This document shows, piece after piece, positions 343 through 42,072 of a stretch of DNA of 64,000 nucleotides. The notes below the pieces were generated by a model. That model was given only the letters and a program-made list of their open reading frames with translations. It was not told where the DNA came from and ran no database searches. Each line of letters opens with the position of its first letter. Position 1 is the stretch's first letter. A program made the translations under genes and the position numbers. Location: positions 56,575 to 120,574 of the forward strand of contig SCUO01000047.1 of the NCBI GenBank assembly GCA_004297395.1. The letters are read 5' to 3'. The DNA comes from Chloroflexota bacterium (GTDB lineage: Bacteria > Chloroflexota > Limnocylindria > Limnocylindrales > CSP1-4).

Positions 343-1017
343 ATGGCCGGTTCGTCACGCGCCTTCGTCCTCCGGCACACCCGGCTCCGGCCGGTGCCCG
401 GCCTCGAGCCGATCCGCCTCCACCTGGCCGACGATGCGCTTGCCCTGTGGCGGGCCGTCCAGCTCGAAACCGGCGATGCGGACGCCCCGATCCCCTATTG
501 GGCCTTCGCCTGGGGCGGCGGTCTCGCGATCGCGCACTACCTTCGGGACCGGCCGCAAACGGTGGCCGGCCGGCGCATCCTCGACCTCGCGTCGGGCTCG
601 GGCCTGTGCGCGATCGCGGCGCTCCAGGCTGGAGCGTCGGCCGCCACCGCCGTCGACATCGATGTCCGCGCCGTCACCGCGATCCGGCTGAACGCCCGGG
701 CGAATGGCGGTCGCCTGACCGTGCTCCAGCGCGACGTCCTGGACGACGAGCCGCCGGACGTCGACGTCATCCTGGCCGGCGACTGCTGGTACGAGGCCGG
801 CCTCGCGGCCCGGGTCCTGCCCTGGCTGCGACGGGCGGGCGAAGCCGGGATCGATGTCCTCGTCGGCGACCCCGGGCGCGCCCATCTCCCGGTCGCCGAG
901 CTCGTGGAGCTTGCCGCCTACGACGTCCGGACCACGACCGAGCTCGAGGACCTTGACCATCGGCGGGGCCGGGTGTACTCGCTTCGGCCGCGCGAGCCGG
1001 TCGGCGCCGTCAGCTGA
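343..1017 (+). CDS. Class I SAM-dependent methyltransferase (small-domain RsmC/PrmA-like)
   Basis: SAM motif I ILDLASGSGLCAIAA, motif II VDIDVRA, acidic motif VILAGDCWY; internal ATG 343 chosen because N-terminal part of ORF 67..1017 is low-complexity and antisense to the secreted-protein gene. Confidence 0.7.
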   Translation: MAGSSRAFVLRHTRLRPVPGLEPIRLHLADDALALWRAVQLETGDADAPIPYWAFAWGGGLAIAHYLRDRPQTVAGRRILDLASGSGLCAIAALQAGASAATAVDIDVRAVTAIRLNARANGGRLTVLQRDVLDDEPPDVDVILAGDCWYEAGLAARVLPWLRRAGEAGIDVLVGDPGRAHLPVAELVELAAYDVRTTTELEDLDHRRGRVYSLRPREPVGAVS

Positions 1018-32159: not shown

Positions 32160-33848
32160 CTAGACCTCGACCACGACCGGGAAGACCATCGGCCGGCGCT
32201 TCGTCTGCTCGTACAGGAAGCGCGAGACGCCGTCCTTGATCTGGGTCTTGAGCAGGGCGATCTCGCTGATGTGGTCACCGGGGTTCTCGACCGAGGCGAC
32301 GACCCGCACGACGGCGGCCTCGAGGATCCGGTCGTACTCGGCCCCGTGGATGAAGCCGCGGGTGATGATCTCGGGCGTGCCGATGACGGCACCGGTCTGC
32401 TTGTCGACGGTCACCACGATCATGAACATGCCGTCGTTGGCGAGCGCCCGCCGGTCGCGGAGGATGACGTCGCCGACCTCGCCGACCGACAGGCCGTCGA
32501 CGAAGACGTACCCGGCCGGGACGGCAGTTGCGCGCCGGGCCGAGCCGTCGGCGAGGAACTCGATGGGCTGGCCGTTCTCGATGATGAACACGTTCTCCGG
32601 CGCTACGCCGGTCTCGATCGCCAGGCGACCGTGCTGGACCTGCATCCGGAACTCGCCGTGGATCGGGATGAAGTGCTTCGGCTTCGTCAGGCCGAGCATG
32701 AGCTTCAGCTCCTCCTGGCTGGCGTGGCCGGAGACGTGGGCCCGCTTGATCGTGTGGTAGAAGACGTTCGCCCCCGCCTTGAACAGGTTGTCGATCGTCC
32801 GGCTGACGTACTCCTCGTTGCCGGGGATCGGGCTGGCGCTGACGATCACGGTGTCGCCCTGGCGGATCTCGACGAAGCGGTGGTCACGGTTGGCCATCCG
32901 GGCGAGGCCGGCCATCGGCTCGCCCTGGGCGCCGGTCGTGCAGATGACGAGCTTCGCGTCGGGCACGTCGTTGAGCTTGTCCTTGGCCACGATCCGGCCC
33001 GTGTCGTAGGTCAGGTAGCCGAGGTCCGAGGCGATCCGGAAGTTCTGCTCCATCGAGCGGCCGATGACCGTGACCTGGCGGTCGAACGTGGCGGCGGCGT
33101 CAAGGACCTGCTGGACGCGGGCGATGTTGCTGGCGAAGGTAGCCACGATGACCCGGCCGTCGAGCGGCTCCATGATCTCGCGGAAGGCCTCGCCAACGGT
33201 CCGCTCCGAGGGCGTATAGCCGGGGTTCTCCGCCCGCGTCGAGTCCGACATGAGGCAGATGACGCCCTCCTCGCCGAGCTTGGCGAGGGTATGGAAGTCG
33301 CTCAGCTTGCCGTCCACGGGCGTGTGGTCGAACTTGAAGTCGCCGGTGTGAACGACGATCCCGACCGGTGTCCGCAGGGCGATGCCCATCGCGTCGGGGA
33401 TCGAATGGCCGATCCGGAACGGGATGGCCGTGAAGGGCCCGATCTGGAGCTCGTCACCGGGCTCCAGGGCGAGCAGCGGGTTGTTGTGGAGCTTGTGCTC
33501 CTTGACCTTGTTGCCGAGCAGGCCGCGAGCGAGCGTGGACGCGTAGACGGGCACGCCCGGGAACTCGGGCAGGATGTAGGGCAGGCCGCCGACATGGTCC
33601 TCGTGGGCATGGGTGATGAGGAAGGCCCTGACGTTCGCCTTCTTGTCCCGGAGATAGGTGATGTCCGGGACGACGAGATCGATGCCGAACATCTCCTCGT
33701 CGGGGAACATGAGGCCGCAGTCGATGACGACGATGTCGTCGCCGTACTCGAACACGAACATGTTCTTGCCGATCTCGCCCACCCCGCCGAGCGGGATGAT
33801 CCTGAGGGGCGTGCCGGTCGGCTGCGGTGCGGCGGATTTCCTGGGCAT
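32160..33848 (-). CDS. rnj: Ribonuclease J (metallo-beta-lactamase / beta-CASP)
   Basis: HAHEDHVGG motif, beta-CASP motifs, C-terminal domain; start at internal ATG 33848 (upstream 334 codons of ORF are Arg-rich junk). Confidence 0.9.
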   Translation of the reverse strand: MPRKSAAPQPTGTPLRIIPLGGVGEIGKNMFVFEYGDDIVVIDCGLMFPDEEMFGIDLVVPDITYLRDKKANVRAFLITHAHEDHVGGLPYILPEFPGVPVYASTLARGLLGNKVKEHKLHNNPLLALEPGDELQIGPFTAIPFRIGHSIPDAMGIALRTPVGIVVHTGDFKFDHTPVDGKLSDFHTLAKLGEEGVICLMSDSTRAENPGYTPSERTVGEAFREIMEPLDGRVIVATFASNIARVQQVLDAAATFDRQVTVIGRSMEQNFRIASDLGYLTYDTGRIVAKDKLNDVPDAKLVICTTGAQGEPMAGLARMANRDHRFVEIRQGDTVIVSASPIPGNEEYVSRTIDNLFKAGANVFYHTIKRAHVSGHASQEELKLMLGLTKPKHFIPIHGEFRMQVQHGRLAIETGVAPENVFIIENGQPIEFLADGSARRATAVPAGYVFVDGLSVGEVGDVILRDRRALANDGMFMIVVTVDKQTGAVIGTPEIITRGFIHGAEYDRILEAAVVRVVASVENPGDHISEIALLKTQIKDGVSRFLYEQTKRRPMVFPVVVEV

Positions 33849-33862
33849 GGGGCCTGGTCCGA

Positions 33863-34606
33863 TCAAAAGAAGGTCGGCGCGTCGAGCGCCGGGTCGACCG
33901 GACCAGCGTCCGGTGGCGGAGTCGGGAACGCCTCGGCCGTGGCCGGCGCCCCGGCGACCGCGGAGGCGGTGGTGCGACGCCGGCGGGCCTCGAGCAGGGC
34001 CGCGGGGATGCCGGTCGCGTCGTCGTAACTCTGGCGCTCGACCTCGGGGGCGCGGAGGGCTGCCGCCGGGTGGTACATCGCGTAGACCATGGCCGAGGTG
34101 GCGCCTGTTGTGGGGTCCACAGGGTGGAGCGTCCCGTGGGCCTGGGTGATCCTGGCCCCCGGGATGAAGCGGCCCATCGAGTGGCGGCCGAGGGTCACGA
34201 CGAGCGCCGGGTCCAGGATCTGGAGCTGGCGCTGCAGGTACGGCAGGCAGGCGGCGACCTCGTCCGGCTCGGGGTCGCGGTTGTCGGGCGGTCGGCACTT
34301 CACGACGTTCGTGATGAACACCTCTTCGCGCCGCCAGCCGATCGTGGCGAGGAAGCGGACGAGCAGGTCGCCGGCTCGACCCACGAAGGGTCGACCCTGG
34401 CGGTCCTCGTTCATCCCGGGCCCCTCGCCGACGAACACGACCTCCGTGTCGGGGTGGCCCTCGCCCGGCACGGCCCGGGTCCGGCCGGCGTGGAGACGGC
34501 AGCGGGTGCAGGTGCGGACCTCCGCGGCGATGGCCTCGAGCGCCGCCGCCCGCGAGGCCGGCGCCTGGGCCGGGGCGTCGAGCGCCAGGCGCTCGCCTGA
34601 CGTCAC
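33863..34606 (-). CDS. Uracil-DNA glycosylase family 4 (UdgA-type, 4Fe-4S)
   Basis: Cys cluster CTRCRLH, GEGPG motif, FITNVVKCRPP, HPAA. Confidence 0.8.
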   Translation of the reverse strand: MTSGERLALDAPAQAPASRAAALEAIAAEVRTCTRCRLHAGRTRAVPGEGHPDTEVVFVGEGPGMNEDRQGRPFVGRAGDLLVRFLATIGWRREEVFITNVVKCRPPDNRDPEPDEVAACLPYLQRQLQILDPALVVTLGRHSMGRFIPGARITQAHGTLHPVDPTTGATSAMVYAMYHPAAALRAPEVERQSYDDATGIPAALLEARRRRTTASAVAGAPATAEAFPTPPPDAGPVDPALDAPTFF

Positions 34607-35676
34607 GCCGGCGCCCCGACCGGGTTCGTTGCCCGCCGCGAGCGCGCCCGGACCCAGTCGCGCTCGACAAGGGCCTCGGCGATCTCGACCGCATTCGTCG
34701 CGGCACCCTTGCGGAGGTTGTCCGAGACGACCCAGAGGGCCAGCCCGCGGCCGCCGTCGATCGAGGGATCCTGGCGGACGCGACCGACGAAGACCTCGTC
34801 CCGGCCGGCCGCCGTGCTCGCGAGCGGGTACTCGTGGCTGGCCGGGTCATCCTGGACGACGACCCCGGGGACCTTCGCGAACAGCGCCCGCGCCTCGTCC
34901 GGGGAGATCGGCCGCGTCGTCTCCACGTGGACGGCCTCGGAGTGGCTCACGAAGACGGGGATCCGGACCGCGGTGCAGGACAGGCGCAGCGCGGGCAGGT
35001 GGAGGATCTTGCGGCTCTCCGTGACGACCTTCCACTCCTCTCGGGTGTAGCCGTTATCGAGGAAGACGTCGATCTCGGGCAGGGCGTTGAACGCGATCGG
35101 GTGGGGATAGACGGCCGCGACCTTGGGCTCGCCGCGAACGTGGGCCTGGACCTGGCCCTCGAGCTCGGCCAGCGCGTCGGCGCCCGTGCCGGACACGGAC
35201 TGGTAGGTGTCCACGATGACCCGGTCCAGCCCGACGCTATCGCGGAGGGCCATGAGGACCGGAACGAGCTGCATCGTGGAACAGTTCGGGTTGGCGATGA
35301 TCCCCTCGTGCCATTCGAGGTCGTCTGGGTTGACCTGGCTGACGACGAGCGGCACGGCCGGATCCATCCGCCAGGCGTTCGAGTTGTCGATGACCGTCGC
35401 GCCGCGGGCCGCCGCAGCCGGCGCCAGCTCCAGCGAGACATCGCTGCCGGCGCTGAACAGGGCGATGTCGACGCCCTCGAACGCGTCCGGGACTGCCTCC
35501 CCGACTTCGAGCGTCCGACCCGCGGCCTCGACCGTCCGGCCGGCCGAGCGGCCGCTCGCGAGCAGCCGCAGCTCGCCGATCGGGAAGTCTCGTTCGGCGA
35601 GGACCTGGGCCATTGTCCGACCCACGACGCCGGTGGCGCCGACGACGGCTACGCTGAGCGGGGAACGCTGGTTCAT
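34603..35676 (-). CDS. asd: Aspartate-semialdehyde dehydrogenase
   Basis: VAVVGATGVVG Rossmann, active-site NCSTMQL, C-terminal dimerisation domain; ATG 35676. Confidence 0.9.
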   Translation of the reverse strand: MNQRSPLSVAVVGATGVVGRTMAQVLAERDFPIGELRLLASGRSAGRTVEAAGRTLEVGEAVPDAFEGVDIALFSAGSDVSLELAPAAAARGATVIDNSNAWRMDPAVPLVVSQVNPDDLEWHEGIIANPNCSTMQLVPVLMALRDSVGLDRVIVDTYQSVSGTGADALAELEGQVQAHVRGEPKVAAVYPHPIAFNALPEIDVFLDNGYTREEWKVVTESRKILHLPALRLSCTAVRIPVFVSHSEAVHVETTRPISPDEARALFAKVPGVVVQDDPASHEYPLASTAAGRDEVFVGRVRQDPSIDGGRGLALWVVSDNLRKGAATNAVEIAEALVERDWVRARSRRATNPVGAPA

Positions 35677-36110: not shown

Positions 36111-38693
36111 TCAGACGGGTTCCTTGGCCAGGTGACGCTGCATCGCGGCCTTGCGCGACAGGTTGACCCGGCCCTGGCGGTCGATCTCGACGACCACGAC
36201 CATGACCTCGTCGCCGACGGACACGACGTCCTCGACGCTCGGCACGTGGTAGTCGGCGAGCTCGCCGATCCGGACGAGGCCCTCCTTGCCGGGCAGGATC
36301 TCGACGAACGCGCCGAAGCCCATGATCCGGGTGACCTTGCCGAGGTACAGGGCGCCGACCTCGACCTCGCGGGTCAGGCTCTCGATCCACTGGATCGCCT
36401 TGCGTGAGTTCTCGCCGCTCACCGCGGCGATCTCGACCGTCCCGTCGTCCTCGACGTTGATCTCGGTCTGGGTTTCCTCCTGGATCTTGCGGATCATGGA
36501 GCCGCCCTTGCCGATGATCTCGCGGATCTTCTCGGGGTTGATCTTGATGGTGATGATCCGCGGCGCGAAGTCGCTCATCGACTCGCGCGCCTGCGGCAGG
36601 ACCTCGGTCATCTTGTCGAGGATCTCGAGGCGGGCCGCCAGGGCCTGCTTCAGGCCGTCGCGAATGATCGCCTCGTTGATGCCCTTGACCTTGATGTCCA
36701 TCTGGAGGGCGGTGATGCCGTCCCTCGTCCCGGTGACCTTGAAGTCCATGTCCCCGACCGCGTCCTCCTTGCCGAGGATGTCGGTCAGGACGACGAAGCG
36801 GCCGTCGGGCTCACTGATGAGGCCCATCGCCGCGCCGGCGACGGGCGCCGAGATCGGCACGCCGGCGTCCATGAGGGCGAGCGTCGAGCCGCAGGTCGAG
36901 GCCATCGAGGTCGAACCGTTGGACGACAGGCACTCGGACACGAGCCGGATGACGTACGGGAAGTCCTCGTTCGTCGGCAGGACGGGGATGAGCGCCCGCT
37001 CGGCCAGGTTGCCGTGGCCGATGTCGCGCCGGCTGGGGCCGCGCATCGGCTTGTTCTCGCCGGTCGAATAGGGCGGGAAGTTGTAGTGGTGGATGTAGCG
37101 CTTCTCGGTCTTGGGGCTGATCGTGTCGATCCGCTGGACGTCCGAGGACGCGCCGAGGGTCGCGATCGTCAGGACCTGGGTCTCGCCCCGGGTGAAGAGC
37201 CCCGAGCCGTGGGCTCGCGGCAGCAGCCCGACGTCGACCGAGATCTGGCGGAGCTCGGTCAGGCCGCGGCCGTCCATCCGGATGCCGTCCTCGAGGGCGA
37301 CCTTGCGGGCCGTCTTCTTGTGGACCAGGTTGAAGAGGCCCTTGCTGACGCGAGCGTCGCGGCGGGCCGCCTCCTGGATGGCCTTGCTGTCGCCGCCCGA
37401 GCGGGTTGCCCGGATGGCGTTCGCGATGCCCTCGCGGAGGGCGTTGATCCGGCCGGGCAGGTCGTTGCCGAACCAGATCAGGAGGTTGGCGGTGGCCTCG
37501 GCGTCCGGCAGGGCCCGATGGGCCTGGGCCAGCTCGATGCCGAAGAAGTTGGACAGGGTCGGGAGCTTGTAGTTCTCGAGGTCCGGGTAGCCCTCGCGGG
37601 CGATCGGCAGGGTGTCGAGGTAGCGGCCGGCCTCGAAGTGGGTGCCGTCGGCGAGGGCGGCCTCGAGGAACGCCAGGTCGAAGCCCACCGAGTGGCCGAC
37701 GACGACGGAGTTGCCGATGAACTTGAGGGCCTGGGCGGCGGCCTCGGCCGGCTTCGGCGCCTTCTTGACGTCGGCATCGGTGATGCCGTGCATCTGCTTG
37801 CCGACGATCGGGCGGCCGGGGTTGACGAGGGTCGACCAGCGGTCGGTGATCTTGCCCTTCTTGACCTTGACCGCGGCGATCTCGACGAGATCGGCCAGCT
37901 TGGGATCCGTGCCGGTCGTCTCGACGTCGACGACGACGAGCTCGTCACCCCGCCCGACGGCGTCGACGAACTCGAGGACCGAGCCGGTGCCGGGCTCGAG
38001 GAACGGCGTGCTCTTTGGCTTGCCGACCGCCTCGCGCAGCTGCTCCTGGATGTCGATGAGCGGCTGGAGGGCTCGATGGCCGAAGAGGATGGCCTCGGCC
38101 ATGACGTCTTCGGGCAGGAGCTTCGCGCCGGCCTCGACCATCATGATCGCGTCGCGGGTGCCTGAGACGATGAGGTCGAGCTCCGAATCGGCGAGCTGGC
38201 TGTAGGTCGGGTTGACCACGAACTCGCCGTCGATCCGGCCGACCCGGACCGCACCAACGGGCCCGGCGAACGGGATCTCGCTGATGGTGAGGGCGGCCGA
38301 CGCGGCGACGGTGCCGAGGACGTCGGGCTCGTTCTCCTGGTCGGTCGAGAGGACCGTGATGACGAGCTGGATGTCGTCCTTGTAGCCCTCGGGGAAGAGC
38401 GGCCGGATGGGCCGATCCGTGAGGCGGGCGGCCAGGGTTGCCGCCTCGGACGCGCGGGCCTCGCGCTTGATGAAGCCGCCCGGGATCTTGCCCGCGGCGT
38501 ACATCCGCTCCTCGAACTCGACGGTGAGCGGGAAGAAGTCGAGTCCCGGCCGCGGATCGGACCGGTTGGCGGTGCCGAGGACCAGGGTGTCACCGTAGCG
38601 AACGGTGACTGCGCCGCCGGCGAGACGGGCGAGCTTGCCGGTCTCGATGGTCAGGGTACGACCGCCGAACTCGGTCTCGAAGATGGTGGACAC
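36111..38693 (-). CDS. pnp: Polyribonucleotide nucleotidyltransferase (PNPase) with embedded DnaQ-like DEDDh 3'-5' exonuclease domain
   Basis: GTG start; PH1 (1-230), inserted exonuclease (about 250-412: VVDVETTG, GHSVGFDLAFL, HRALPDAEATANL), alpha-helical remnant, PH2 (GSGLFTRGETQ...), KH (IKINPEKIREIIGKGGSMIRKI), S1 (GKVTRIMGFGAFVEIL); 860 aa. Confidence 0.9.
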   Translation of the reverse strand: MSTIFETEFGGRTLTIETGKLARLAGGAVTVRYGDTLVLGTANRSDPRPGLDFFPLTVEFEERMYAAGKIPGGFIKREARASEAATLAARLTDRPIRPLFPEGYKDDIQLVITVLSTDQENEPDVLGTVAASAALTISEIPFAGPVGAVRVGRIDGEFVVNPTYSQLADSELDLIVSGTRDAIMMVEAGAKLLPEDVMAEAILFGHRALQPLIDIQEQLREAVGKPKSTPFLEPGTGSVLEFVDAVGRGDELVVVDVETTGTDPKLADLVEIAAVKVKKGKITDRWSTLVNPGRPIVGKQMHGITDADVKKAPKPAEAAAQALKFIGNSVVVGHSVGFDLAFLEAALADGTHFEAGRYLDTLPIAREGYPDLENYKLPTLSNFFGIELAQAHRALPDAEATANLLIWFGNDLPGRINALREGIANAIRATRSGGDSKAIQEAARRDARVSKGLFNLVHKKTARKVALEDGIRMDGRGLTELRQISVDVGLLPRAHGSGLFTRGETQVLTIATLGASSDVQRIDTISPKTEKRYIHHYNFPPYSTGENKPMRGPSRRDIGHGNLAERALIPVLPTNEDFPYVIRLVSECLSSNGSTSMASTCGSTLALMDAGVPISAPVAGAAMGLISEPDGRFVVLTDILGKEDAVGDMDFKVTGTRDGITALQMDIKVKGINEAIIRDGLKQALAARLEILDKMTEVLPQARESMSDFAPRIITIKINPEKIREIIGKGGSMIRKIQEETQTEINVEDDGTVEIAAVSGENSRKAIQWIESLTREVEVGALYLGKVTRIMGFGAFVEILPGKEGLVRIGELADYHVPSVEDVVSVGDEVMVVVVEIDRQGRVNLSRKAAMQRHLAKEPV

Positions 38694-38704
38694 GGGGTGC
38701 TGTT

Positions 38705-38724
38705 CCTCCTGTCGTGGGAGGAGG
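38705..38724 (-). promoter_or_regulatory. pnp 5' leader hairpin sequestering the Shine-Dalgarno (CCUCCU-N8-AGGAGG)
   Basis: On mRNA strand: CCTCCT CCCACGAC AGGAGG AACAGCACCCC GTG. Confidence 0.4.
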
Positions 38725-38772
38725 CGACGAATGGTTCCTGGCCGATCAGCCTGCCGGGAGCCCGATGCGATC

Positions 38773-38795
38773 GACCCCGGGGTGGACCCGGGGTC
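38773..38795 (-). promoter_or_regulatory. 9-bp GC stem-loop in rpsO-pnp intergenic region (candidate RNase III processing / rpsO terminator hairpin)
   Basis: GACCCCGGG / CCCGGGGTC arms with 5-nt loop. Confidence 0.4.
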
Positions 38796-38811
38796 AACGG
38801 TGGCAGCGAGC

Positions 38812-39114
38812 CTAGCGGCGGAGTCCGAGCCGTCCGATGACGGCGCGGTAGCGCGTGTTGTCCTTCTTCACGAGGTAAGCGAGAAGGCGACGGCGCTGGC
38901 CGACGAGCTTGAGGAGGCCGCGACGCGAATGGTTGTCCTTGGGGAAGCTCCGGAGATGCCCCGTCAGGTCCTTGATCCGCTCGGTGAGGAGCGCGACCTG
39001 GACTTCCGGTGAGCCGGTGTCGCCGTCCTTGACGGCAAACCCCGTGATGATCTCCTGCTTCTCTTCCCGCGCGAGCGGCACTCGGTCCTCCGACACGAAC
39101 GTGACTGTATGCAT
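38812..39114 (-). CDS. rpsO: 30S ribosomal protein S15
   Basis: [51 protein letters not shown]; ATG 39114 (alternative GTG 39096 would give 94 aa). Confidence 0.85.
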
Positions 39115-39126
39115 TTCCTTCAACTT

Positions 39127-39155
39127 TGACCGACGGATCCTAGCAGCCAATCGCG
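39127..39155 (-). promoter_or_regulatory. Putative rpsO promoter (TTGCCC-N17-TAGGAT on minus strand)
   Basis: In 78-nt ribF-rpsO gap. Confidence 0.25.
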
Positions 39156-39191
39156 GTTCGGGCAAACGCCGGGGCCTCTCCCAGCGTTCCC

Positions 39192-40013
39192 TCAGGCCCC
39201 AACCCGACCGCCATCCCTCGCGAACACCAGGCGCAGGCGCCCGTGGATCGGTGCTTCCGTGACCAGGGCCAGGTCGCCGTCCGCTCCGATGACGGCCGTC
39301 GCAGTCAGCGCGCCGGTGGCCCCCTGCCCCTCCACGGTGGCCGGGTATTCCCCGGCGGGCGGGAGCGCTACTGGCATCGGCGCGACGAGGCGGGCGCGGC
39401 CGTCGGGGGCAGGGCTCCCCTCCCCCACGATCGCGTACGGACGACCGAGCAGCCTCGCTGCCCCGGCCAGGTCGCCCGCTGCGATGTCCGAGCGGATCTC
39501 GCCGCTCCGGACGGGCCGGCCGTCGAGATCGAGGCTCGGGATGATCGCGACGTCGTAGCCCATCGTGGCCCCGAGCGCGGCCACGGCCTCCGGGGTTCCG
39601 CGCCGATCGTGGCCGAAGGCCGATTCGGGGGTCATCAGGAAACCCGCGAGCGCCGTCCGGGCAGCGATCCGGCCGATGAAGTCCTCGAACTCGGTCATCC
39701 GGAGGGCGACGTCGAAGTGTTGGACGATGGTGACCTCGACGCCGGCTGCGGCAAGTCGCTCGAGGCGCTCGTCGGGGTCGCACAGCAGCGGCGGGGCGGC
39801 GCCGGTGAGGATCTCGTCGGGGTGGTGATCGAAGGTGATGACCGTCGGCCGAGCCGATCGGCGAGCCGCCTCGGAAACGAGGTGCTCGAGCAGGTAGGCG
39901 TGGCCGAGATGGAGGCCATCGAAGACGCCGACGACCACGAACAGTCGCCCGTGCTCGGCGCCGAGGGCGTCGATCCCTGCCACGACCGCCATCTCGCGCG
40001 CTGCGTCAGGCAT
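39192..40013 (-). CDS. ribF: FAD synthetase (RibF) with apparently degenerate C-terminal riboflavin-kinase domain
   Basis: FMN adenylyltransferase motifs [24 protein letters not shown]; ATG 40013 overlaps truB stop by 8 nt; C-terminal domain lacks the GFPTAN-type flap motif. Confidence 0.75.
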
Positions 40014-41052: not shown

Positions 41053-42072
41053 TCAGCGCTGAACGGCGGCCGCGAGCCGCTCCGCTTCCGGCAGGACGAG
41101 CGCGCGCGCCTCTGAGACGGTGGCCTGGAGCGAGGCACCCGCCGCGCGGGCGTGCCCGCCGCCCCCGAACAGCCCGGTCAGGACGGTCGCATCAAACCCG
41201 CCCGGCTTCGTCCGGACGGAGATCCGCGTTGCCGGACCCGCCTCCTTGAACAGGATCGCGACCTCCGCCGCCTCTGACTGGGACAGCAGATCGATGATCC
41301 CCTCGGAGTGGGCGCTCAGGGCGCCCGTCTCGGTCACGTCGGCGGTGAGGAGGGTCGAGTGGATGACCAGGCCGCCGGCCGCCGTCTGCAACCGGTCGAG
41401 GACTCGGCCGAACAGGCGCAGCTGGACGTCCGGCTTGGTGCGATACAGGCGATTCGAGATCTCGGACAGCGGCGCGCCGGCCGCGACGAGGGCCGCCGAA
41501 ACAGCGAGGGTCCGCGGCGTCGCGTTGGGATGGGCGAACGTCGCGGTGTCCATGACGATGCCGGCCATGAGCGCCGTGGCGAGGGCTCCGTCGCCGGCCG
41601 TGAGCGGGACGCCGAGCGCCGCGGCGAGGAGGGTCACGAGCTCGCAGGTCGCTGCCGATCGTGGGTCCACCCAGTCCGCGGGACCGGCGGCGCCGTTCGA
41701 GGCGTGATGGTCGATGACGACCGTCGGCAGGCGGGCCAGGATCTCCGCCTGGCGCTCCCGGAGCTCGCCGACGCGCTCGAGCGAGCCGCAATCGACGAGG
41801 ACGGCGAGGTCGTAGGCCACGCCCGGCTCGGGGTCCGTCCGGAAGGCATCGATCCCCGGCAGGAACGCGTACAGCGGCGGCGGGACGTCCGTGCAGACCA
41901 GTGACGCCCGGCCGCCGCGGGCCTCGATGATCAGGCGCAGGGCGAGGCCGGCCCCGAGGGTGTCCGCGTCGGGGTTCTCGTGGCTCACGACGAGGAGGGA
42001 CCTGGCCTGCCGCAGCTCCGCCACGACGGCGGCCGGCACGGCCTCCAGCCACGGCTCCAGGAAGGTGCTCAT
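41053..42072 (-). CDS. nrnA: DHH/DHHA1 phosphoesterase (NrnA-type nanoRNase / pAp phosphatase)
   Basis: DHH motifs VVSHENPDADTLGAG, VDCGS, IDHH; DHHA1 GGGGHARAAG. Confidence 0.8.
   Translation of the reverse strand: MSTFLEPWLEAVPAAVVAELRQARSLLVVSHENPDADTLGAGLALRLIIEARGGRASLVCTDVPPPLYAFLPGIDAFRTDPEPGVAYDLAVLVDCGSLERVGELRERQAEILARLPTVVIDHHASNGAAGPADWVDPRSAATCELVTLLAAALGVPLTAGDGALATALMAGIVMDTATFAHPNATPRTLAVSAALVAAGAPLSEISNRLYRTKPDVQLRLFGRVLDRLQTAAGGLVIHSTLLTADVTETGALSAHSEGIIDLLSQSEAAEVAILFKEAGPATRISVRTKPGGFDATVLTGLFGGGGHARAAGASLQATVSEARALVLPEAERLAAAVQR

Follow-up and report, generated by a model that had tools for sequence, protein, structure and literature searches.

Polynucleotide phosphorylase (PNPase) is among the most conserved and best-studied enzymes of RNA decay, and its helical domain is the least understood part of it. 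The window analyzed here, a stretch of 64,000 nucleotides from a Limnocylindria genome, raises the question of why a pnp gene should encode 860 amino acids, about 150 more than is typical, and what the additional residues might do. A first-pass annotation had read the surplus (37458–37946, which is exactly aa 250 to 412) as an apparently intact DnaQ-like 3′-5′ exonuclease of the DEDDh type embedded in a housekeeping PNPase, an architecture for which it knew of no described example. Coordinates of the gene and its domains are given in Table 1.

Table 1. Features of the pnp locus, with positions in the window and residues of the encoded protein
Feature	Position	Strand	Remarks
pnp, 860-aa polynucleotide phosphorylase with predicted embedded DEDDh domain	36111..38693	minus	GTG start; stop codon included
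PH1 (first RNase PH-like domain), aa 1-208, with GGFIKRE channel loop	38070..38693	minus	Pfam RNase_PH and RNase_PH_C (144-208); dN/dS 0.09
First helix of helical domain (aa 210-223) and variable N-side linker (aa 224-252)	37938..38069	minus	AF2 helices 210-223, 237-248
Predicted embedded DEDDh (DnaQ/epsilon-like) 3′-5′ exonuclease domain, aa 253-405	37479..37937	minus	Pfam RNase_T
Exo I motif VVDVETTG, aa 254, putative catalytic D256 and E258	37911..37934	minus	both residues invariant, 85/85
Exo II motif GHSVGFDLAFL, aa 333, putative catalytic D339	37665..37697	minus	D339 and F338 invariant
Exo III-epsilon motif HRALPDAEATANL, aa 392, putative catalytic H392 and D397	37482..37520	minus	H392, R393, A394, D397, A398 invariant, 85/85
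Rest of PNPase helical domain, aa 406-469	37287..37478	minus	AF2 helices 394-432, 436-447, 451-469; pLDDT ~88-95; dN/dS 0.32
PH2 (second, catalytic RNase PH-like domain), aa 480-700	36594..37256	minus	Pfam RNase_PH 480-613; dN/dS 0.12
KH domain, aa 712-771	36381..36560	minus	Pfam KH_1, E 6.6e-11
S1 domain, aa 777-848	36150..36365	minus	Pfam S1, E 3e-17
rpsO (ribosomal protein S15), directly upstream of pnp	38812..39114	minus	Pfam Ribosomal_S15, E 5e-34

The pnp gene and its PNPase core

The open reading frame and its unusual length were confirmed, with a net insertion of ~147 to 156 aa. Genes around pnp are ordered nusA-infB-(DHH/DHHA1)-truB-ribF-rpsO-pnp, and synteny at a locus of the freshwater genus "Candidatus Limnocylindrus" (L081) is identical, the rpsO-pnp arrangement included; by this arrangement, pnp is the organism's housekeeping PNPase, as had been proposed. 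The true start of rpsO is probably internal to the called open reading frame, giving a protein of ~89 aa. In the pnp leader, the RNAalifold consensus was only partial, the alignment being gappy, and a pattern count was used for the conserved anti-SD/SD pairing.

The whole protein scored 939.8 bits against the PNPase equivalog model TIGR03591 (cut-off, 525.05) and 936.9 bits against NF008805 (cut-off, 471), in each case as two stretches split by the insert. The Pfam domains (RNase_PH twice, RNase_PH_C twice, KH_1, and S1) are colinear with solved PNPases, as the annotation had described for the flanks, and PH1 aligned with the solved enzymes from aa 3 to 223. PF03726 was undetected in the Pfam scan of the window protein, in which the helical linker is interrupted. 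In PH2, the motifs FTRGETQ (within GSGLFTRGETQ, which begins at aa 496), NGSTSM, and GDMDFK are found at aa 500, 592, and 647, respectively. From E. coli PNPase, we take FTRGETQ to supply the RNA-binding Arg, NGS(S/T)SM the phosphate site, and D..GDMDFK the metal site. All 85 sequences compared share R502, S594, T595, S596, D644, D650, and K652. Given the equivalog score and the invariant catalytic motifs, the PNPase core is intact and predicted to be capable of phosphorolysis.

Position and family of the inserted block

Alignment to solved PNPases stops at query residue 221 or 223 and restarts at 416 or 453 (416 for 8zaw), with the matching gap in the solved chains running from 235 to 283 in 8zaw and from 238 to 312 in 5yjj. 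The annotation had placed the block between PH1 and the helical domain. Judged from these alignments, it instead sits within the helical domain, past the first helix (aa 210 to 223), where ~45 helical-domain residues are replaced by a DEDDh domain of 153 aa plus linkers. Canonical bacterial PNPases (TIGR03591; E. coli 3cdi/3gcm, C. crescentus 4aid, and S. epidermidis 5yjj) lack the DEDDh block and keep these ~45 residues. Structure prediction by AF2, run on the monomer (pTM, 0.72), returned the expected DEDD fold and one continuous helix of 39 residues (aa 394 to 432; pLDDT, ~90) running from the insert into the remaining helical domain, so that a rigid connection between the two is predicted. 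The S1 region was poorly modeled (pLDDT, <50), which was attributed to a shallow alignment.

The identity of the block as a DnaQ-like domain was borne out by profile search: Pfam RNase_T (PF00929) matches aa 253 to 405 over the full length of the profile (1–164 of 164; E value, 1e-29; 101 to 104 bits against a gathering threshold of 24), and the insert has the RNase H-like alpha/beta fold of DEDD exonucleases. All three DEDD motifs lie where they had been reported, and D256 and E258 (Exo I DxE), D339 (Exo II D), and H392 and D397 (Exo III Hx4D) occur in order, assigning the domain to the DEDDh type. These five residues are invariant in all 85 sequences of the conservation set, which spans 69 to 96% identity, and are kept in two more divergent fragments (P0122 and P0136). 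Residues surrounding them are also conserved across the set (ETTG, HGI, FD..F, DT, and HRA..DA); position 335 in Exo II varies between Asn (47/85) and Ser (38/85, including the window protein).

Selection across the protein is uneven, with dN/dS at 0.09 to 0.14 in the PNPase core, 0.19 in the insert, and 0.32 to 0.43 in the linker and helical parts; the N-side linker is the least conserved segment (68% identity; dN/dS, 0.43). The insert region measures 228 to 233 aa across the sequences compared, and pairwise distances of the insert and the core are correlated (r = 0.76). The insert has thus been inherited together with the PNPase core under purifying selection. Alternatively, the block might be a noncatalytic module, whether a sensor of nucleotides or oligonucleotides, a gate for NDP or phosphate at the pore, or a surface on which partner proteins dock, RNase J, RNase E/Y, and a helicase being examples. 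We regard this as improbable because the retention of five metal-binding and general-base residues, together with the motif residues around them, in 85 sequences is what catalysis demands and exceeds what a scaffold needs. The insert is very probably a genuine exonuclease domain that is under selection and competent for catalysis.

The nearest kin of the insert are found among DNA-type enzymes. Its best profile-family matches are the DEDD domain of DEDD plus GIY-YIG (Cho-like) proteins and the exonuclease domains of DinG and PolC, and on the structure side its relatives are PolC and DinG, together with epsilon, ExoX, and TREX-like enzymes. Neither its best family match nor its closest structure places it with RNase T, Orn, or REXO2. 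A dnaQ orthologue would be expected to stand alone and to carry an alpha-binding tail at its C terminus. Against the DNA polymerase III epsilon model TIGR01406, the score was 78 bits, far from the cut-off of 222.7, whereas the isolated insert, at 75.3, clears the broad domain model TIGR00573 (cut-off, 71.5), and the whole protein, at 71.0, narrowly fails to. The insert likewise falls below the equivalog score of every named DnaQ-family protein. Many fused PNPases are labeled "DNA polymerase III epsilon subunit family exonuclease" by JGI; since the TIGR01406 cut-off is missed, this name is a domain label and not a statement of orthology.

Distribution and integrity of the fused architecture

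The fused architecture recurs, with the same synteny, in no fewer than 80 and as many as 334 species-level genomes; every one of the 80 species-level genome loci that were retained carries it. Each of the 240 matches listed for two probes (the best 120 for each), drawn from NCBI, ENA, JGI, and Logan assemblies with some contigs exceeding 1 Mb, is the fused form at 859 to 866 aa. "Candidatus Limnocylindrus" shares the fused PNPase at ~69% identity. The insertion is therefore lineage-wide in Limnocylindria, an uncultivated class of soil and freshwater Chloroflexota.

These data also bear on whether the block could be an artifact or a neutral passenger, that is, a chimeric assembly, a misjoined gene call, or a recent insertion, selfish or acquired horizontally, that has no function. 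The lineage is known only from metagenomes, and some database relatives are frameshifted gene calls, both of which would favor such an origin. Against it stand the recurrence and near-constant length of the architecture, an unbroken reading frame and uniform GC content across the junctions, the dN/dS of 0.19 in the insert, the codivergence of insert and core, and the absence of a second copy of the insert from the window. A chimera, which the annotation had flagged as a concern, is excluded because the architecture recurs in hundreds of independent assemblies, and for practical purposes we consider the artifact and passenger readings refuted. An intein or other mobile element was ruled out by the lack of a second copy in the window, the uniform GC content, the strong purifying selection, and the single fixed site.

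In an exhaustive search of 1.84 billion protein representatives, no fused PNPase-DEDD protein outside Limnocylindria was seen among the matches inspected, which came from the 150 listed of 12,514. Five proteins considered as independent fusions (P0147, P0176, P0170, P0158, and P0167) proved to have RNase_T+GIY-YIG+UVR, DinG-like, PolC, or RNase_T+BRCT architectures, which are also those of the next-best non-PNPase relatives in the search. Another five, considered as degenerate inserts elsewhere at 42 to 52% identity to the junction query (P0156, P0194, P0178, P0163, and P0135), are frameshifted gene calls, in which R/P/S-rich out-of-frame stretches of high-GC DNA, and not decayed domains, account for the sequence; the Pfam scan assigned no family to P0156 or P0194.

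No solved PNPase or other chain in the PDB spans both modules, and no paper on a PNPase with a DEDDh insert was found. To this extent the annotation's view of the architecture as undescribed holds. The insertion is not unique to the window genome, since it is lineage-wide and databases already tag both domain sets, PF00929 included, on Limnocylindria proteins. The architecture is real and apparently undescribed in the literature.

Candidate functions and known systems

We propose that, in an ancestor of Limnocylindria, ~45 helical-linker residues were exchanged for a complete DEDDh 3′-5′ exonuclease domain of the epsilon/PolC/DinG type, such that the homotrimer would hold three phosphorolytic (PH2) sites and an equal number of hydrolytic sites that depend on metal. 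The solved PNPases have their helical domain on the ring face that is opposite S1/KH, and the domain helps to form a side pore leading to the active site (Nurmohamed et al. 2009, PMC2723993). Because the insert would be tied to the helical domain by the continuous 39-residue helix, the DEDDh sites should stay fixed on this back face, close to the pore. A second, phosphate-independent 3′-end trimming activity, cooperating with PNPase on single-stranded 3′ ends, would be the most likely function. Its candidate substrates are RNA 3′ ends or fragments on which the phosphorolytic site works poorly or which it lets go: short limit oligonucleotides, ends near secondary structure, or any end at low phosphate. 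Taken as a whole, the proposal of a bifunctional PNPase with a built-in DEDDh exonuclease is one that we favor with moderate confidence, and we hold with similar confidence that RNA is the main substrate of the insert; any one specific role is doubtful. The pnp operon contains an NrnA-like DHH/DHHA1 gene, and a nanoRNase role may therefore already be covered.

What counts against RNA as the substrate is that the characterized relatives closest to the insert (the PolC proofreading domain, DinG, ExoX, and epsilon) are mainly DNA exonucleases, and we infer the term "exoribonuclease" for it from context and not from homology. The DEDDh module might instead act on DNA or RNA:DNA hybrids, serving the secondary functions of PNPase in DNA-end processing, recombinational repair, or R-loop removal, and not bulk RNA decay. 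Both its best family and structure matches and the next-best architectures in the large protein search would fit such a role. In addition, B. subtilis DinG prefers single-stranded DNA, removes R-loops, and cuts single-stranded RNA only with Mn2+ (PMC12525004), and PNPase itself degrades single-stranded DNA and takes part in the repair of double-strand breaks, both in B. subtilis (PMC2709576, PMC3241651) and in E. coli (PMC5379764). However, sugar specificity in the DEDDh superfamily is not reliably tied to sequence subfamily, and the full RNA-binding set of this PNPase (KH, S1, and the channel loop) is kept under strong selection. The gene also remains in a translation and RNA-processing operon, as ordinary pnp equally does, and the only linkage to a repair gene is in Limnocylindrus, where a UDG gene lies two genes downstream. 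On this evidence, we consider a DNA- or hybrid-directed function rather unlikely.

Several known systems share elements of the proposed enzyme. The PolC exonuclease is a domain inserted inside its host enzyme, not a terminal fusion, and the DEDDh insert is likewise interior to its host. The PolC proofreading domain (2p1j, 9qpc), the N-terminal exonuclease of DinG (8zef/9ii8), ExoX (4fzx), and the Pol III epsilon subunit (1j53) have the same fold and Exo I/II/III-epsilon motifs, but the hosts of DnaQ-like domains are a DNA polymerase or helicase, whereas the host here is an RNA phosphorylase. The same DEDDh subfamily is found in a Cas2-DEDDh fusion (8fy9; PMC10284694; E value, 1e-13), in which it likewise gives the host machine 3′-end trimming; that fusion is terminal, to a CRISPR integrase subunit, acts on DNA prespacers, and is unrelated to RNA decay. 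Phosphorolytic PNPase is also paired with a hydrolytic DEDD nuclease in RNA decay, as human mitochondrial PNPase-SUV3 with REXO2 (PMC7261184) and as PNPase with RNase D in the degradosome of Caulobacter (PMC4245959), in both cases as distinct proteins. REXO2/Orn and RNase D belong to other DEDD subfamilies, whereas the insert is epsilon/PolC/DinG-like and covalently built in.

The parallel with the RNA exosome is more speculative. In the eukaryotic exosome, the PH ring is catalytically dead, and the hydrolytic nucleases are separate subunits. In contrast to the eukaryotic and archaeal exosome, with its separate nuclease subunits (Rrp44 and the DEDDy nuclease Rrp6, the latter in PDB 4oo1), the Limnocylindria PNPase appears to combine both chemistries, each apparently live, in one polypeptide with a nuclease of the DEDDh and not the DEDDy type. 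It may thus be a single-polypeptide bacterial counterpart of the exosome design of a PH ring plus a hydrolytic nuclease, with both types of 3′-5′ site live and physically coupled, an idea that we put forward tentatively. The three DEDDh domains would then form a crown at the side pores, on the face opposite S1/KH, taking 3′ ends or limit oligonucleotides from PH2 or degrading RNA under phosphate limitation. If so, whether RNA decay conserves energy (NDP) or is irreversible (NMP) would be decided intramolecularly, by a single enzyme.

In sum, two different 3′-end-degrading chemistries appear to be housed in one protein, with a second nuclease, predicted to be active, within the helical domain of PNPase, and this variant is found throughout an abundant class of soil and freshwater bacteria. 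The names now in use, PNPase alone in some cases and "DNA polymerase III epsilon family exonuclease" in others, do not convey this architecture. If the inserted domain is active, the Limnocylindria enzyme would offer a one-protein system for studying how phosphorolytic and hydrolytic 3′-end decay are divided or coupled, what purpose the PNPase back-face pore serves, and by what route an exosome-like partnership of PH ring and hydrolytic nuclease can come about.

A DEDDh exonuclease domain within the PNPase helical domain

The 860-aa product of pnp is a genuine PNPase, and the insert that it contains truly belongs to the DEDDh exonuclease superfamily; every sequence and fold feature that we tested agrees with both assignments. 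Pfam identified two RNase_PH, two RNase_PH_C, KH_1, and S1 domains, and the PNPase identity proposed for the flanks held, with the NCBIfam equivalog TIGR03591 matching the whole protein in two stretches at 939.8 (cut-off, 525). The PNPase site motifs FTRGETQ, NGSTSM, and GDMDFK are all present, with key residues invariant. Between the two PH modules, the RNase_T profile (PF00929) aligned over its full length (1-164 of 164) with aa 253-405 (E = 1e-29), confirming the exonuclease domain suspected in the first-pass annotation, and the insert alone scored 103.8 bits (gathering score, 24). The nucleotide span originally assigned to the insert corresponds exactly to aa 250-412, and the motifs lie where they had been quoted: VVDVETTG (Exo I) at aa 254, GHSVGFDLAFL (Exo II) at 333, HRALPDAEATANL (Exo III) at 392, and GSGLFTRGETQ at 496. 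The nearest NCBIfam models to the insert were the DEDD exonuclease domain-containing protein NF005906 (1e-42), DinG-exo (2e-37), and PolC-exo (3e-36). Orthology with DnaQ, RNase T, or Orn was rejected because the equivalog scores of each were not reached. GC level stayed flat through both junctions (0.68-0.72).

The insert had been placed between PH1 and the helical domain, which proved incorrect: it lies within the helical linker domain, past its first helix. Alignments with solved PNPases break at residues 221-223 and pick up at 416 (8zaw) or 453 (5yjj), and only 47-73 residues occupy this interval in the solved structures, so that the net gain is ~150 aa. An AlphaFold2 model (alignment of 85 sequences; mean pLDDT, 75.8; pTM, 0.72) was confident across aa 130-510, including the insert (pLDDT of about 85-96), and poor at the channel loop (aa 46-82) and S1 domain, which we attribute to the shallow alignment. 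The predicted alpha/beta DEDDh fold was as anticipated, but its kinship is with epsilon, PolC-exo, DinG-exo, and ExoX rather than with RNase T. A PDB search found no chain spanning both PNPase and DEDDh modules.

Features of the window and segments of the modelled protein
Feature	Position	Strand	Remarks
RNase J gene	32160-34850	-	downstream of pnp, past asd; listed ORF 896 aa
pnp ORF	36111..38693	-	860 aa, GTG start
Insert	37458-37946	-	
Exo II Asn position (aa 335)	37689-37691	-	Ser in the window protein
rpsO-pnp intergenic region	38694-38811		
Anti-SD/SD hairpin	38704-38722	-	CCUCCUCC-N7-AGGAGGA; just upstream of pnp start
Perfect 12-bp GC-rich hairpin	38770-38798	-	few bases past rpsO stop; no U-tract after it
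Listed rpsO ORF	38812-39783		323 aa
DHH/DHHA1 gene	41053-42072	-	NrnA-like nanoRNase/pAp phosphatase family
Helix (AlphaFold2)	aa 210-223		
Linker with short helix (AlphaFold2)	aa 237-248 (helix)		
Alpha/beta DEDDh domain (AlphaFold2)	aa 252-393		
One unbroken helix (AlphaFold2)	aa 394-432		Exo III helix at start, PNPase helical-domain helix at end
Two further helices (AlphaFold2)	aa 436-447, 451-469		

Recurrence, conservation, and selection

The insertion is biology and not an artefact. In a search of 5.8 billion proteins, the best 120 matches (845-866 aa, 84-96% identity) all carried PF00929 together with PNPase domains, and they came from NCBI, ENA, JGI, and Logan assemblies, some on contigs of 1-2.8 Mb. 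A selfish element and the chimeric assembly against which the first-pass annotation had cautioned are both effectively excluded. When aa 201-470 were searched against a single genome from each GTDB species, 334 loci encoding a relative emerged, of which 80 were kept; at 76-89% identity, all 80 match the insert and both junctions. Of these, 79 are from Chloroflexota MAGs, in most cases with the label Ca. Limnocylindrales or Limnocylindria, and the full-length orthologues drawn from them (n = 58) are 860-862 aa long. Seven contigs with fused pnp (L069 [DATLVO010000031.1], L005, L014, L029, L048, L060, and L064) were deposited as Verrucomicrobiia, Ca. Sulfomarinibacteraceae, Anaerolineaceae, and Thermomicrobiales. 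Their 80-86% identity to the window makes mis-binning or outdated and incorrect taxon labels most likely, rather than a wider distribution.

Exhaustive HMMER searching of 1.84 billion representatives at 50% identity yielded no more than 60 matches at E <= 1e-30, nearly all of them pieces of one fused-PNPase family. Five representatives (P0156, P0194, P0178, P0163, and P0135) that might pass for degenerate domains or new families proved to be frameshifted gene calls in which in-frame segments alternate with Arg/Pro/Ser-rich out-of-frame stretches. The sole divergent full-length representative, P0124 (864 aa), has the architecture of the window protein and comes from the freshwater genus Ca. Limnocylindrus; its own best 120 matches are all fused, and the gene order at its locus is that of the window (nusA-infB-rbfA-DHH/DHHA1-truB-ribF-rpsO-pnp-asd-UDG-rnj-ftsK). 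The insertion therefore dates back at least to the divergence of Limnocylindraceae from the soil and sediment clades.

Among 85 sequences with 69-96% identity to the window protein, the catalytic residues D256, E258, D339, H392, and D397 are invariant, as are T260, G261, D268, E271, H302, G303, F338, F342, D360, T361, R393, A394, and A398; two more divergent fragments (P0122 and P0136) retain DxE, FD, and Hx4D. The Exo II Asn (H-N-x-x-F-D) varies across the family (47 Asn, 38 Ser); the catalytic Asp, four positions further on, is constant. Pairwise Nei-Gojobori dN/dS (400 sequence pairs) was 0.09 for PH1, 0.12 for PH2, 0.14 for KH/S1, 0.19 for the DEDDh domain, 0.32 for the residual helical domain, and 0.43 for the N-side linker. 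Distances in the insert and core were correlated (r = 0.76; 3570 pairs). Length differences in the insert region amount to only a few residues. The insert thus appears catalytically competent, and the invariance of the catalytic set makes a purely structural or regulatory role unlikely.

The early proviso that such an insertion might prove widespread and already annotated applies in part: it is lineage-wide and domain-tagged, yet uncharacterised and apparently unremarked. At NCBI these proteins are named 'polyribonucleotide nucleotidyltransferase', and at JGI the name 'DNA polymerase III epsilon subunit family exonuclease' is given to many. No description of the architecture was found in full-text literature on PNPase with DEDD-type insertions or fusions, Chloroflexi and Limnocylindria included, and the main Limnocylindria genomics paper mentions neither PNPase nor any exonuclease.

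The rpsO-pnp leader and neighbouring genes

Two hairpins lie between rpsO and pnp. The 131-nt region with the 12-bp hairpin folds at -56.7 kcal/mol (z = -2.2), and its equivalent is kept at orthologous loci with varied, partly compensatory sequence; as in the corresponding E. coli leader, it may stabilise the 3' end of rpsO or be a site of processing. The second would sequester the pnp ribosome-binding site, whose SD lies 9-11 nt ahead of the start codon, and is a candidate element for translational (auto)regulation. Among 59 distinct orthologous leaders, 57 have its CCTCC...GGAGG pairing (53 with the strict pattern and 4 variants recognised by eye), the exceptions being locus L028 and Ca. Limnocylindrus L081; start codons in these leaders are TTG (42), GTG (15), and ATG (2). 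The listed RNase J ORF is over-extended, with Pfam domains beginning at aa 361 and an overlap with asd, and comparison with L081 suggests a true length of probably about 555-605 aa. The listed rpsO ORF is likewise over-extended; at 70% GC, spurious long ORFs are a common occurrence. The whole 64-kb window (1-64000) gave no Rfam match at gathering score and contains no detected tRNA or tmRNA gene.

Possible roles of the fused enzyme

In the exosome, the PH ring is paired with Rrp6. PNPase is likewise paired with the DEDD nuclease REXO2 in human mitochondria (PMC7261184) and with RNase D in the Caulobacter degradosome (PMC4245959); whereas these partners are separate proteins, the DEDDh domain here lies inside PNPase. 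In solved PNPases, the helical domain sits on the torus face opposite S1/KH and forms part of a pore giving a second path to the active site, considered a passage for NDP and phosphate and not an entrance for RNA (PMC2723993; see also PMC3376730). Joined to this domain by an unbroken helix, three DEDDh domains would be fixed in defined positions on the back face beside the pores. One enzyme would then combine reversible, Pi-dependent phosphorolysis (yielding NDP) with irreversible, Pi-independent hydrolysis (yielding NMP). The most economical role would be trimming of single-stranded 3' ends together with PNPase, with likely substrates being ends or short fragments released or poorly handled by the PH2 site or, under phosphate scarcity, 3' ends in general. 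Of related interest, the DHH/DHHA1 gene lies in the same nusA-infB-...-rpsO-pnp operon, also in Ca. Limnocylindrus, and its product may already cover short-oligonucleotide degradation.

Alternatively, the insert may act at DNA ends or R-loops, a serious if less likely reading. By sequence and fold it groups with epsilon, PolC-exo, DinG-exo, and ExoX, not RNase T or Orn, and among the HMMER matches listed, the next-best relatives have DNA-repair or replication architectures. For the DinG exonuclease of B. subtilis, ssDNA is the preferred substrate; the enzyme also degrades RNA strands in hybrids, and it requires Mn2+ to act on ssRNA (PMC12525004). A 3'-5' DNase function and a part in repair are documented for PNPase as well (PMC2709576, PMC3241651, PMC5379764).

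Collectively, the fused PNPase is real, ancient within its class, and under selection, and its proposed mechanism is plausible, with the substrate uncertain. Reached by domain-fusion inference in uncultivated organisms, such an enzyme would surprise a specialist in RNA decay.
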